Shown here: piece after piece, positions 3,464 through 6,429 of the stretch | How the letters are laid out: every line of letters starts with the position of its first letter | Position numbering within the stretch: position 1 is the stretch's first letter | IMG/VR virus record: IMGVR_UViG_3300045988_048025 | Source: a virus | Taxonomy: Duplodnaviria; Heunggongvirae; Uroviricota; Caudoviricetes | DNA length: 44,090 nucleotides | Strand: one strand, 5' to 3' | Position numbers and translations under genes: made by a program | Notes under the pieces: model-generated | Databases searched by the model: none | The model's input: only the letters and a program-made list of their open reading frames with translations | What the model was told of the DNA's origin: nothing

Positions 3464-5356
3464 ATGCTATTAACTTTAGCACCACAGGGTTTAACTATGA
3501 GCTTACTTACATCACTCATCAGCCATCAGATATGGCTGCAACGCACCGCATCCGGTGAGGTGAAAGACCTCGCACCGTTCATTAAGGAGATGCGGGATGA
3601 AATAAAACGGCAGGTGCTGTTATTCGGTGATGACGGGCGGAGCACTGCGCGACTGAATAAACTGTTACTCGACCTTGAAGAAGCGCTAACCGGACTTACC
3701 GGCGATTGGCAAACAAAGCTGACAGAAGACCTTAAGGAACTGGCGGCATACGAGGCTGAGTGGAACGTAAAGACACTAACCGCCAACGTTAACGCGGAAT
3801 TTGTTACGCCTACCGCCGAACAGGTGTGGGCCGCCGCCGATTTTCAGCCATTATCGTTAAACGACAAGCCTGTTGACTTCACTAAATTGATGTCTGGTTG
3901 GGGTGAAACCGAAGTCGCCCGCCTCGTAACTGGAGTTAAGATGGGCTTTGTACAAGGTCAAACCACACGGCAGATTGTTAAGAATGTCGTAGGCTCTGGT
4001 GGGCTGGCCGACATCTCAGAACGTAACGCGGCTACAGTAATCCGCACCGCGCTGTCTCATGTATCCAACGAAGCCCGTAACGAGACGTACCGCCAGAACG
4101 ACGACATCATCGAGAAATACGAGTGGGTATCAACGCTGGACAGCCGTACCAGTACGATTTGCAGAGCCAGAGACAGGATGACGTGGGAAATCGGTAAAGG
4201 GCCGATGCCTCCGGCCCATCATAATTGCTTACTTGGGGATACTGTAGTATCTACCGGTAGTCCGGTTTCTAACATTTTTAAACGGGCGTACAAAGGCACT
4301 ATAGTCTATGTCTCTACAAGGTCCGGTCGCACCTTGTCTATCACCCCAAACCACCAGGTATTGACTACCAATGGTTGGGTTGCTTCCGGCCTTCTCAATG
4401 TAGGCGACAAGCTCGTGTGCGCTAAGGACTCTGCGCTCTCTCTCAAGCATAAGGAACACAACGTTGTAGCCAAGTTCTCCGATTTGTTTAGTGCGGCTAA
4501 TGTAGCGGTCAATCCTGCGGCGGTCCGTACAAGCCCAACCACCACCGAAGACTTCCACGGCGACGGAACCGACGGCGAAGTCGAGATTGTACTTGTCAAC
4601 CGCCTTTCCTGGGATAAAGTCAAGTCCGGACTGAATAAGCAAATCATTGACAAGGAACTCCCAGTGGCTTCCCGCATTTATGACTCCCTCTCTGGCTTTG
4701 GCTCTGCGAAGCAGTTCAGCATGGTCGGCCTTTCTCCCTCGGACAGCTTCATGCGCCGCGGCGGAGAGAGCGAGGCGCTCCTCGGGAGTAGCTTTAGCCA
4801 TTCTGATAAACATAGCGTCGCTGACACCGCGAATACTAACGCCGTTCTCTCTGAGAACGCGTATGACTGGGTTACACGAAACGCCGATAATCTTTCCGAT
4901 TTCAACTGGTCCGATGCCGTCGGTATAGAGCTTGATGATGTTGTCGATTTGGTCTTTAGTGAAGCTGATTTTTGCGGGCATGTTTATAACCTCGAAAATG
5001 AACAGAACTGGTATCTCGCAAATGGAATTATAGCACATAATTGTCGCTCAACAACCGCGCCAGTAATCAGTTCTGAGTTCGACTTCCTCGATAAAGGCGC
5101 AAAACGCGCGGCTAAGGGTGCGGACGGTGGTATGCAGGTAAGTGCAGACACCACCTATTATGAGTTCCTCAAACAACAACCTGCGTGGTTTCAGGACCAG
5201 GCGCTCGGCCCTGTTCGCGGTAAGATTTTCCGTAACAGCGGTATATCACCGGAAGAGTTTCGCGTAATATCTGTAGATGGTTTCGGGAATCCGCTCACGC
5301 TTAAGCAGATGGCGGAACTCGATAAACGTGTTGCTGATTATCTGAAAGGGGATTAA
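3464..5356 (+). CDS. Head morphogenesis protein (phage Mu F-like / SPP1 gp7-like) interrupted in frame by an intein-like element
   Basis: EWVSTLDSRTSTICRARD...PPAHHN then, after the insert, CRSTTAPV, which resembles the conserved H-x-N-C-R region of Mu F-like proteins; located after the portal. Alternative start ATG 3497. Confidence 0.75.
   Translation: MLLTLAPQGLTMSLLTSLISHQIWLQRTASGEVKDLAPFIKEMRDEIKRQVLLFGDDGRSTARLNKLLLDLEEALTGLTGDWQTKLTEDLKELAAYEAEWNVKTLTANVNAEFVTPTAEQVWAAADFQPLSLNDKPVDFTKLMSGWGETEVARLVTGVKMGFVQGQTTRQIVKNVVGSGGLADISERNAATVIRTALSHVSNEARNETYRQNDDIIEKYEWVSTLDSRTSTICRARDRMTWEIGKGPMPPAHHNCLLGDTVVSTGSPVSNIFKRAYKGTIVYVSTRSGRTLSITPNHQVLTTNGWVASGLLNVGDKLVCAKDSALSLKHKEHNVVAKFSDLFSAANVAVNPAAVRTSPTTTEDFHGDGTDGEVEIVLVNRLSWDKVKSGLNKQIIDKELPVASRIYDSLSGFGSAKQFSMVGLSPSDSFMRRGGESEALLGSSFSHSDKHSVADTANTNAVLSENAYDWVTRNADNLSDFNWSDAVGIELDDVVDLVFSEADFCGHVYNLENEQNWYLANGIIAHNCRSTTAPVISSEFDFLDKGAKRAAKGADGGMQVSADTTYYEFLKQQPAWFQDQALGPVRGKIFRNSGISPEEFRVISVDGFGNPLTLKQMAELDKRVADYLKGD
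4226..5041 (+). mobile_element. Intein-like in-frame insertion (272 codons)
   Basis: Begins with Cys (CLLGDTVVSTG, block A-like), contains ITPNHQVLTTNGW (block B-like TxxH), ends VYNLENEQNWYLANGIIAHN (block F/G-like, terminal HN) followed by +1 Cys; excision would restore HHN-CRST. Confidence 0.75.
4229..4981 (-). CDS. Antisense ORF nested in the intein: putative HTH plus PD-(D/E)xK (Vsr/DUF559-like) nuclease, candidate homing endonuclease
   Basis: ATG at 4981 with GAGG 8 nt upstream; HTH-like IDNIIKLYTDGIGPVEIGKIIGVSCNPVIRVLRENG; nuclease-like core YNLDFAVGSVAVEVFGGGW...DRRRIDRYISRTKQIGELGYNVVFL; protein-like composition while the sense strand here is Ser-rich linker. Track ORF is 4229..5038. 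Confidence 0.4.
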   Translation of the reverse strand: MPAKISFTKDQIDNIIKLYTDGIGPVEIGKIIGVSCNPVIRVLRENGVSIRGVSDAMFIRMAKATPEERLALSAAAHEAVRGRKADHAELLRRAKAREGVINAGSHWEFLVNDLLIQSGLDFIPGKAVDKYNLDFAVGSVAVEVFGGGWACTDRRRIDRYISRTKQIGELGYNVVFLMLERERRVLSAHELVAYIEKAGSNPTIGSQYLVVWGDRQGATGPCRDIDYSAFVRPFKNVRNRTTGRYYSIPK

Positions 5357-5817
5357 TGATGGGCTTTTTCAAAGTAACTGATGTGCCGTCGCGTCGCGTA
5401 GTCCAGTACGCTCGTGTGTCTGGCTCCGGCGAGAACGTAACCTACGTTGAAGATGAAAGTGTACTAGGTACACCTGTAGACGAGATGCCGTACGCGGATA
5501 AAACCGGTATCGCACTCTCCGCGGCAGGTATGCTTTATGAAATTCCGTATCTGGCCGATGCTGGCGATGTGTATTTCTCCGTACAACCGCAAGGCACCGA
5601 ACTGGTGGACGGCAGCGCAATTATCACTGTTGAAGTTAAGGCGGGTAAAGCCCCGTACGCGCTGACCTGGTACAAAGACGGTAAGGAAGTTGTAAACGCC
5701 CCGGAAGAGGCCTCGTCACTGACGGTTAATGCGGTCGGTGAATACTTCGTTAAAGTTACTGATGCCGATGGGGTAGAGGCGGTGAGCAAGGCGGCGAAGG
5801 TCACTAAACCAGAATGA
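5356..5817 (+). CDS. Virion-associated protein with C-terminal Ig-like domain (putative)
   Basis: Start overlaps the upstream stop (TAATG); C-terminal YALTWYKDGKEV...VGEYFVKVTDADG resembles Ig-like domains of phage decoration proteins. Confidence 0.5.
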   Translation: MMGFFKVTDVPSRRVVQYARVSGSGENVTYVEDESVLGTPVDEMPYADKTGIALSAAGMLYEIPYLADAGDVYFSVQPQGTELVDGSAIITVEVKAGKAPYALTWYKDGKEVVNAPEEASSLTVNAVGEYFVKVTDADGVEAVSKAAKVTKPE

Positions 5818-5820
5818 TAA

Positions 5821-5840
5821 AAGGCCCCTTACGGGGCCTT
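5821..5840. terminator. Hairpin terminator between convergent genes
   Basis: aaggcccc-ttac-ggggcctt, between the + gene ending at 5817 and the - gene ending at 5845. Confidence 0.55.
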
Positions 5841-5844
5841 AGTT

Positions 5845-6096
5845 TCAATACCCAGTCTCTTGGGTTAAGTTAATCTCTTTATTCCAGACGTTTTGGTTAT
5901 ACTTTTCACGAATCTGGCGCATACTTCTACCGAGCGCGGCGGATAGAGACATATCCCCGTCTTCTTGCGCGTCCAGTTGCATCTGCTGAAGCTCAATATA
6001 CGCCGAAATATCGCCGCGTAATTCAGCCTGTTCATACTCTTTTTTAAGAAAGGAACCAAGGTCCTGTACACGATGTTTTGCTGGTTTCGTAATCAT
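5845..6096 (-). CDS. Hypothetical protein (83 aa)
   Basis: ORF on the - strand with its own upstream promoter motif; no recognisable domain. Confidence 0.5.
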   Translation of the reverse strand: MITKPAKHRVQDLGSFLKKEYEQAELRGDISAYIELQQMQLDAQEDGDMSLSAALGRSMRQIREKYNQNVWNKEINLTQETGY

Positions 6097-6125
6097 TTCT
6101 TCTCGCCTCTTGTTGGTGTGAGTGA

Positions 6126-6154
6126 ATAGTACCCTATTATATTGGTGTCTGCAA
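6126..6154 (-). promoter_or_regulatory. Sigma70-like promoter for 5845..6096 (-35 TTGCAG, 17-bp spacer, -10 TACTAT) overlapping a 16-bp operator-like motif
   Basis: Read on the - strand: TTGCAG-acaccaatataataggg-TACTAT, then leader tcactcACACCAACAA. Confidence 0.4.
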
Positions 6155-6220
6155 ACTATTTGTTTACGTATTCCAGTTATTCTTCGTAATTGTAAATGTT
6201 AGAATAAACTATTCGAATAG

Positions 6221-6249
6221 TTGACTTTTCACTAAAAATATGATAAGCT
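6221..6249 (+). promoter_or_regulatory. Sigma70-like promoter (-35 TTGACT, 17-bp spacer, extended -10 TGaTAAGCT)
   Basis: TTGACT 6221..6226, TG 6241..6242, TAAGCT 6244..6249; near-identical copy at 37507..37535. Confidence 0.5.
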
Positions 6250-6362
6250 CCACCTGAGCTTGTGAAGTATGAACAAGCGACCGCGGCGCGGGCAGGTAAC
6301 GGAGCGGGACGTAAGTCCTGAGTGTAGTTACGCTGACGCGTTCGGAAGGGCCGTACTCTATT
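6250..6362 (+). ncRNA. Candidate conserved structured RNA element / leader, copy A
   Basis: About 110 nt downstream of the promoter, largely identical to 37536..37650; hairpins gcttgt...acaagc and ggac-gtaa-gtcc, the latter replaced by gtgcc-atta-ggcac in copy B. Confidence 0.35.
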
Positions 6363-6429
6363 GCTTGTGTAAAAAGTAACTGGTTTACTGAGATTACGCC
6401 GTTTCTATGTTTAAATGATAAGGACTAGC

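Follow-up and report, generated by a model that had tools for sequence, protein, structure and literature searches.

An intein with a putative antisense Vsr-like endonuclease gene in the head morphogenesis gene of a Guernseyvirinae phage

The virus record IMGVR_UViG_3300045988_048025 of IMG/VR (Caudoviricetes), a stretch of 44,090 nucleotides hereafter called the window, exhibits on its plus strand an open reading frame (ORF, positions 3464 to 5356) corresponding to the Mu F / SPP1 gp7-type head morphogenesis precursor of a Guernseyvirinae phage. This gene contains a class 1 intein of 272 codons (4226 to 5041), and the central two thirds of the intein are coding on the opposite strand. We consider it probable that the insertion is a two-strand mobile element, composed of a sense-coded splicing domain and an antisense-coded Vsr-like endonuclease, in the head gene of a Kagunavirus-like phage. 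In this proposal, codons 1 to 70 and 251 to 272 of the plus strand would be the two halves of a Hint splicing domain, and codons 71 to 250 a mere stop-free, unstructured tether. The intein would excise itself after translation, joining ...PPAHHN to CRSTT... and restoring the N-C-R motif of the head protein. The minus strand, in exact codon register, would encode a 250-amino acid (aa) protein of helix-turn-helix modules and an I-Bth0305I-type Vsr-like nuclease domain, its start codon, ribosome-binding site and likely extended -10 element being the complement of block F/G codons and its stop the complement of codon 2. This protein would most likely cut intein-less head-gene alleles in co-infecting phages, and repair of the cut allele would copy in the whole intein together with short co-conversion tracts.

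The head gene and its intein

The ORF is 630 aa long from the ATG at 3464 and matches phrog_241 (E-value = 1.3e-147). The start annotated in its relatives is equivalent to the ATG at 3497, giving a precursor of 619 aa, or 347 aa once spliced. No stop codon interrupts the ORF within the insertion, which separates an N-extein (3464 to 4225, ending in ...PPAHHN) from a C-extein (5042 to 5356) whose first residue is the +1 cysteine of the conserved N-C-R motif. The inserted sequence starts with CLLGDTVVSTG, includes ITPNHQVLTTNGW and ends with NWYLANGIIAHN, immediately followed by that cysteine (TGT, 5042 to 5044). The nucleophile Cys1 (TGC, 4226 to 4228), block B T40-P-N-H43 (4343 to 4354; TPNH or TPEH across all lineages), block F with G251-H252 (4976 to 4981) and the terminal H271-N272 (5036 to 5041) are all identified. 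Cys1, the TxxH of block B, the His-Asn pair and Cys+1 are invariant in all lineages, and so are G251-H252-V253-Y254-N255, Y263, H271 and N272 in alignment A2.

An initial annotation, made from the sequence alone, had described 4226 to 5041 as a 272-codon in-frame intein-like insertion, and its coordinates and motifs prove to be exact. It had suggested a search with splicing-domain profiles. On the insertion, the Pfam profile Intein_splicing (PF14890) reaches 42.8 bits (gathering score 35.8) and the NCBIfam profile intein_Cterm (TIGR01443) 21.3 (cutoff 15.6), while intein_Nterm (TIGR01445), at 24.3, is slightly below its cutoff of 24.5. A mini-intein assembled in silico from both ends matches the solved KlbA, DnaB and RecA inteins (E-value of about 1e-4). 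A scan of the window with Rfam gave no match, so an intron or RNA element is not involved. A reading as a split intein in a fractured gene, of the type described by Dassa et al. (2009), was rejected, the sense ORF being continuous in the window and in the loci examined.

Intein-less alleles of the gene are common. When the two exteins were joined into a synthetic 600-nt sequence, 145 phage records matched it without interruption (600 nt of query to 600 nt of record), and alignment with such homologues, also suggested initially, exhibits a clean gap of 272 codons. The intein-less allele of phage XY2 reads PPAHPNCRSTTAPV, with CCAGCCCATCCTAATTGCCGAAGTACC at the junction, and its head protein is 347 aa long. 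The Phage_Mu_F domain (PF04233) matches residues 159 to 255 of the precursor and ends at the junction. Removing 4226 to 5041 in silico raises its score from 38.2 to 44.1 bits and extends the matched part of the profile from 8-107 to 7-111 of 112 positions, in keeping with the initial claim that splicing would rebuild a conserved H-x-N-C-R motif. The intein-less alleles and this gain in score thus support the interpretation as an intein. The NCBIfam profile SPP1_gp7 (TIGR01641) scores slightly below its cutoff on the head protein. The head gene shares 94% identity with its counterpart in Escherichia phage Snoke (Kagunavirus, Guernseyvirinae) and 84-91% with those of many Salmonella Jerseyviruses. 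It should also be noted that the extein residue at position -2 (4220 to 4222) is histidine in the window (AHHN/C); all other intein-containing alleles examined, and the intein-less XY2, exhibit proline (AHPN/C).

Protein splicing is what these features predict. One might instead suppose that the insertion is not spliced, being tolerated as an internal domain or bypassed by another way of making the head protein, with the intein-like residues as relics. Structure prediction leaves some room for this, as AlphaFold2 (AF2) gives the splicing domain only moderate confidence: in the sense intein, residues 23 to 67 reach a predicted local distance difference test score (pLDDT) of 64-77 and the termini stay below 50. 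However, the splicing residues (Cys1, TxxH, His-Asn, Cys+1) are invariant, and the ratio of nonsynonymous to synonymous substitution rates (dN/dS, by the Nei-Gojobori method) of the sense frame is about 0 in the C-terminal splicing region, which comprises blocks F and G (codons 251 to 272, 4976 to 5041). Moreover, the insertion breaks the conserved N-C-R motif of an essential head gene, and the sense frame stays open against expectation. We regard the absence of splicing as very improbable.

The centre of the intein is coded on the opposite strand

A list of ORFs in the window contains a minus-strand ORF of 269 codons (5038 to 4229) spanning nearly the whole intein. Within it we delimit a homing-endonuclease-like gene of 250 aa plus stop (4981 to 4229), the codons of which are in register with those of the intein. 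Its likely start, the ATG at 4981 to 4979, is the complement of the His252 codon CAT, and its stop, the TAA at 4231 to 4229, is the complement of the intein Leu2 codon TTA.

Substitutions counted among nine Guernseyvirinae alleles reveal which strand is under selection. The changes at plus-strand codon positions 1, 2 and 3 number 117, 71 and 342 in the N-extein, and 27, 15 and 135 in the C-extein. In intein codons 71 to 250 the pattern is inverted (132, 20 and 50), and it returns to normal in codons 251 to 272 (1, 0 and 10). The dN/dS ratios agree. Over the exteins they are 0.04-0.11 in the sense frame (0.08-0.11 for the N-extein) and 1-3 in the antisense frame, which is not a coding frame there. 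Over codons 71 to 250 (4436 to 4975), a stop-free stretch for which no fold is predicted in the sense frame, they are 0.84-3.6 in the sense and 0.035-0.18 in the antisense frame. In the N-terminal splicing region (codons 1 to 70, 4226 to 4435), overlapped by the 3' tail of the antisense ORF, it is mainly the sense frame that is under selection (sense 0.06-0.42, antisense 0.6-1.5).

Sequence conservation points in the same direction. When the identical central DNA of eight lineages (the window and phages of Salmonella, Vibrio, Gordonia, Klebsiella, Mycobacterium, Aggregatibacter and Idiomarina) is translated in both frames, every one of the 28 pairs scores higher in the antisense than in the sense frame, the totals being 2526 and 982 bits, respectively. 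The corresponding tblastn identities, antisense against sense, are 97% and 91%, 75% and 62%, 43% and 33%, and 35% and 26%. AF2 models the antisense protein with a mean pLDDT of 83.1 and without any low-confidence segment, whereas the mean for the sense intein is 41.3, with residues 68 to 223 below 50, a comparison weakened by the shallow input alignments (14 and 9 sequences). Substitution pattern, dN/dS, conservation and predicted structure are four independent lines of evidence, and together they show that the intein, over its central two thirds, truly codes in the antisense frame. The initial annotation was right about the intein but took its 272 codons for one ordinary intein protein, and so missed the minus-strand coding of its centre. 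A chance origin of the antisense ORF was rejected in view of its selection, fold and conservation.

It is scarcely credible, in our view, that the insertion is an ordinary intein with a sense-frame (possibly degenerate) endonuclease or linker at its centre, the minus-strand ORF being a by-product of codon bias and of mirror conservation in codon register. It is true that an antisense frame aligned with the codons of a conserved gene retains a degree of similarity and may stay open by chance, and such a by-product would account for the antisense tail, where YRVVWG mirrors the TPNH of block B. It would not place the central substitutions at the third position of antisense codons, with an antisense dN/dS of 0.04-0.18 and a sense dN/dS of about 1 or more, nor make the antisense translation the better conserved one in every comparison. 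The predicted Vsr-like nuclease fold of the antisense protein and its profile match to I-Bth0305I, set against a sense centre without a predicted fold, also speak for the two-strand element.

Two-strand coding also explains the anomalous codon usage of the insertion. The sense leucine codons include 7 CTT and 11 CTC among 24, whereas CTG prevails elsewhere in the window. The odd codons pointed out initially (CTT, CTC, TCC and GGA, unlike the flanking gene) are therefore real, but a foreign codon dialect is not their main cause: they are mainly the complements of antisense Lys AAG, Glu GAG, Gly GGA and Ser TCC codons, respectively. Both frames lack TTA, CTA and TCA codons, with the sole exception of the sense TTA opposite the antisense stop. 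These three codons make up 2.5% of codons in the genes of the window, and their absence from 250 codons would occur by chance with a probability of about 0.002 per frame. The GC skew flips its sign across the intein.

A Vsr-like nuclease domain in the antisense protein

The antisense protein by itself exhibits only sub-threshold helix-turn-helix and restriction endonuclease matches against Pfam, PHROGs and NCBIfam, so that its family was identified only through profile and fold searches. Word-indexed protein searches returned 14 and 13 proteins, because the antisense ORF is rarely called as a gene. A profile built on the protein matches I-Bth0305I, a homing endonuclease of the EDxHD / Vsr-like type (Taylor et al. 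2011, PMC3239194). The protein exhibits a predicted Vsr-like nuclease fold (aa 104 to 200 approximately, 4382 to 4672 on the minus strand), preceded by an N-terminal helical part (aa 1 to 100 approximately, 4682 to 4981) with modular helix-turn-helix DNA-binding repeats and a conserved AAH77xAxRG motif. Three acidic residues of the nuclease domain are invariant in alignment A1, namely E108 (4658 to 4660), D134 (4580 to 4582) and E143 (4553 to 4555). They correspond to E170 and D196 of I-Bth0305I (D134 aligning with D196) and to an acidic residue at the position of Phe62 in Vsr. The antisense protein probably has nuclease activity, and would cleave DNA and bring about homing.

The proposed general-base histidine of the family (His213 in I-Bth0305I, His69 in Vsr) is replaced in the window by an alanine, in the sequence Trp149-Ala150 (Ala150 at 4532 to 4534). 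This position is alanine or serine throughout the Guernseyvirinae and Vibrio clade, while 117 of the 148 best family representatives keep Trp-His. At the position of the second aspartate (Asp222 in I-Bth0305I, Asp97 in Vsr), the hidden Markov model alignment places Tyr160; Asp153 and Asp158 lie near but are not conserved in the family. The histidine has been replaced despite strong purifying selection on the gene and the recently mobile appearance of the element.

Putative expression signals within the splicing blocks

Each of the eight lineages has its antisense ATG opposite the histidine codon (CAT) of block F, with a GAGG-like motif upstream; the block F sequence GHVYNLE on the sense strand is EVINM on the antisense strand. 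In the window, the Shine-Dalgarno-like GAGG (4990 to 4993, minus strand) lies 8 nt upstream of the ATG, opposite the codons AAC CTC (Asn-Leu) of block F. Further upstream, 46 nt from the ATG, an extended -10 promoter-like element TGCTATAAT (5027 to 5035, minus strand) is the complement of ATT ATA GCA, the codons for Ile-Ile-Ala in block G. This element is a perfect extended -10 match, and no other TGnTATAAT occurs in the 44 kb of the window on the two strands, for which the expected number is 1.13. It is kept in seven of nine Guernseyvirinae alleles, the remaining two exhibiting TGCTATAAC. A TGnTATAAT is found at the same place in the Vibrio and Idiomarina phages, and elsewhere upstream of the ATG in Aaphi23. 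We lean slightly towards the view that the motif is the promoter of the antisense gene, which is presumably both transcribed and translated.

Evidence for mobility of the element

The divergence of the intein disagrees with that of the exteins, which indicates, from sequence comparison, a recent transfer of the intein. Between the window and Salmonella phage LP31, the exteins are 73% identical but the intein 95.8%, and the synonymous divergence (dS) amounts to 0.21 for the endonuclease frame, compared with 1.2-2.3 for the exteins. The identity climbs to 92% some 20 codons ahead of the intein, reaches 97-100% within it, and has dropped to 73-83% by about 25 codons past its end, a profile that homing with short co-conversion tracts would be expected to leave. 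Phages vB_STM-ZS and SaI_NFG_5577 exhibit the opposite pattern (exteins 90%, intein 81%). Dual coding itself slows sequence change, so that the contrast between intein and exteins somewhat overstates the transfer; constraint alone, however, does not account for the dS comparison and the reversed pair. The element is also patchily distributed, with about 70 intein-containing against at least 145 intein-less Guernseyvirinae. Besides the window it is present in only two Escherichia phages of the database, and about 100 Kagunaviruses are without it. The initial claim of horizontal acquisition is thus upheld by the mismatch in divergence, and not by codon usage, on which it had been based.

The intein of Salmonella phage L223 is mosaic relative to that of the window, being 68-88% identical in intein codons 1 to 76 and 87-100% in codons 77 to 272, which suggests recombination inside the intein.

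Several observations weigh against the two-strand element. The last 50 aa of the antisense protein, overlapping the N-terminal splicing domain, are only weakly constrained (dN/dS 0.6-1.5), with a pLDDT of 68-82. Upstream of the antisense ATG, a scan for two-hexamer promoters gave no site (a minus-strand site at 5649 to 5620 is a weak match 640 nt away), so that the extended -10 motif is the sole basis of the proposed promoter, and no terminator was found downstream of the antisense stop. Given Ala150, the enzyme of the window may be altered or inactive. The missing general base is the main reason why we retain an alternative, in which the antisense gene is genuine and expressed while its product has ceased, in this clade, to act as a homing nuclease. 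The product could instead regulate by binding DNA, take part in competition between phages, or be an enzyme that nicks DNA or is altered in some other way, and the intein would be inherited mostly vertically and by ordinary recombination. Mutation of the histidine inactivates I-Bth0305I (Taylor et al. 2011, PMC3239194), its replacement extends over the whole Guernseyvirinae and Vibrio clade, the second aspartate of the motif is not confidently placed, and phage head genes recombine often anyway. Yet the whole protein, including the nuclease core with its invariant E108, D134 and E143, is under strong purifying selection. The sharp edges of identity, at the intein plus or minus about 20 codons, the low dS of the element relative to the exteins and its patchy presence are likewise in favour of homing. 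We therefore judge a loss of the homing function to be unlikely, and retain the two-strand mobile element as the preferred reading.

Distribution of the arrangement

In all 22 loci examined (17 from phage collections, i.e. GenBank records and two IMG/VR contigs, and five sampled metagenomic contigs), the ORF of the host gene, of MuF type or other, continues without a stop across the intein, and an antisense Vsr-like ORF is present in codon register. Further hosts of the element include Vibrio, Klebsiella, Aggregatibacter and Idiomarina phages and marine metagenomes. A search of IMG/VR for related loci found only two near-identical ones. Against 1.84 billion representative proteins, the antisense endonuclease profile matches 1403 clusters at E-value <= 1e-30 and 5886 at E-value <= 1e-10, and 130 of the 148 best representatives contain the C-terminal motif mirroring block B. 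This suggests that the family is very large and is systematically missed by gene callers, which assign a single strand to each locus.

In most lineages the intein is inserted at the cysteine of the MuF N-C-R(C) motif. Mycobacterium phage Sejanus (OP172873.1) carries a homologous intein with an antisense ORF in a fusion of capsid maturation protease and MuF, at a site unlike that of the other lineages, about 50 residues upstream of N-C-R-C (VWV/CVHPDT...VVVHN/CTIDG). In Virus Rctr197k (KX853510.1, positions 208 to 1614), the same intein with its antisense Vsr-like ORF is inserted in the PCxxC zinc motif of a dCMP deaminase, which represents an extein switch; once spliced in silico, the host protein gives 57 bits with PF00383. 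The gene is recorded as a "putative head morphogenesis protein", apparently because of the intein. In the unannotated records MG969408-MG969410 (Salmonella phages GE_vB_HIL, M4 and M5), the matches to the sense and antisense proteins are broken or partial, which could reflect frameshifts, decay or sequencing errors.

Relation to known inteins and endonucleases

The intein itself is already known. The gene of Escherichia phage Snoke (GenBank MK931441) is annotated as "intein-containing capsid morphogenesis protein", and its intein is at the same site as that of the window, with 94% identity over the gene and 95.7% over the intein. A Jerseyvirus intein is mentioned in PMC8425127 and that of Kagunavirus vKMB36 in PMC11162368. 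These three sources concern the sense-strand intein only, the antisense endonuclease gene being neither annotated nor discussed in them; in the record of phage PK1 the antisense ORF is listed as a hypothetical protein. The useful part of the present case is thus the two-strand coding, the intein alone being routine and already annotated.

The same architecture is described in a preprint of Gosselin, Arsenault and Gogarten (bioRxiv 10.1101/2025.01.02.630785), which, in the parts considered here, reports inteins with an "anti-sense VSR-like HEN" in minor capsid (MuF-like) proteins of actinobacteriophages, an HHpred link of the endonuclease to 3R3P, and an unstructured sense centre. It is the only description of this architecture that we found in the literature. 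The inteins it describes there and that of the window have in common an unsplit intein, a MuF-type minor capsid gene, an endonuclease on the opposite strand, a structureless sense centre and the link to 3R3P. They differ in their hosts, enterobacterial phages (Kagunavirus, Jerseyvirus) for the kind found in the window and actinobacteriophages for those treated in these parts of the preprint. The antisense protein of the window is 35% identical to that of Gordonia phage Vivi2 (E-value = 6e-25) and also matches those of Sejanus and Sedona. By tblastn, the Gordonia phages Vivi2, Angelicage, Affeca and Fosterous match with 35-36% identity (E-value = 1e-24 to 1e-25), always opposite to the MuF coding strand. 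The intein site in the Gordonia phages (Vivi2) is the same as in the window, before the cysteine of N-C-R-C, in contrast to that of Sejanus. By its homology to the actinobacteriophage examples, the element of the window is a member of the inteins with antisense VSR-like endonucleases. An architecture reported only for actinobacteriophages is thereby extended to well-studied, tractable coliphages and Salmonella phages. The preprint, in a sentence on endonuclease VII-like inteins, lists Sedona, Affeca, Keitabear and "Angelicase" (cluster 47); we find the antisense Vsr-like ORF in the Gordonia phages Sedona, Angelicage and Affeca.

Compared with what these parts of the preprint report, the present analysis shows in addition the selection hand-over between the strands, and the overlap of the ORF with both splicing regions, from inside block F through block B to intein codon 2. 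It further adds the candidate signals in block F/G codons, the histidine missing in one clade, the spread over hosts and exteins, and the apparent size of the family.

Like I-Bth0305I and its relatives, the antisense protein of the window combines a Vsr-like fold with modular DNA-binding repeats in front of it, and resides in a self-splicing phage element. The Vsr-like family was defined by Dassa et al. (2009, PMC2677866), from members in split inteins oriented like the host gene, and by Taylor et al. (2011). EDxHD members are located in group I introns, are free-standing, or lie between the halves of split inteins in the orientation of the host gene, whereas that of the window is antisense in an unsplit intein and has Ala150 in place of His213. 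Antisense LAGLIDADG endonucleases in the inteins of Synechocystis DnaX and a Chloroflexus SpoVR-like protein (Gorbalenya 1998; Gogarten 2002), known to us as cited in bioRxiv 10.1101/2025.01.02.630785, are likewise opposite to an intact intein, but nuclease family and hosts differ.

The candidate signals of the nuclease gene lie inside splicing-block codons, so that neither partner could change without affecting the other. We put forward, as a tentative view that falls somewhat short of an even chance, that intein and antisense nuclease form a co-adapted two-strand unit with expression signals in the splicing blocks. This unit would be among the commonest, and almost wholly unannotated, types of phage inteins, with over 1400 clusters, hosts ranging from Proteobacteria to Actinobacteria, and several exteins, dCMP deaminase among them. 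The histidine-less nuclease would have a variant catalysis, and early antisense transcription across the late head gene might in addition modulate the latter. With about 750 nt of antisense overlap in codon register, the locus is a clean natural example in which the passage of selection from one strand to the other can be measured. It further provides a simple genetic handle, as sense-synonymous Leu or Ser swaps to TTA, CTA or TCA would disable the antisense gene only.

The downstream locus

Just past the head decoration gene, downstream of the head morphogenesis gene, a bidirectional terminator-like hairpin is found at 5821 to 5840, followed by a minus-strand ORF of 83 aa (5845 to 6096). Relatives carry other genes in the slot corresponding to 5821 to 6366 of the window, annotated as a sliding clamp, an endonuclease or a RusA-like resolvase, and the slot looks like a variable locus.

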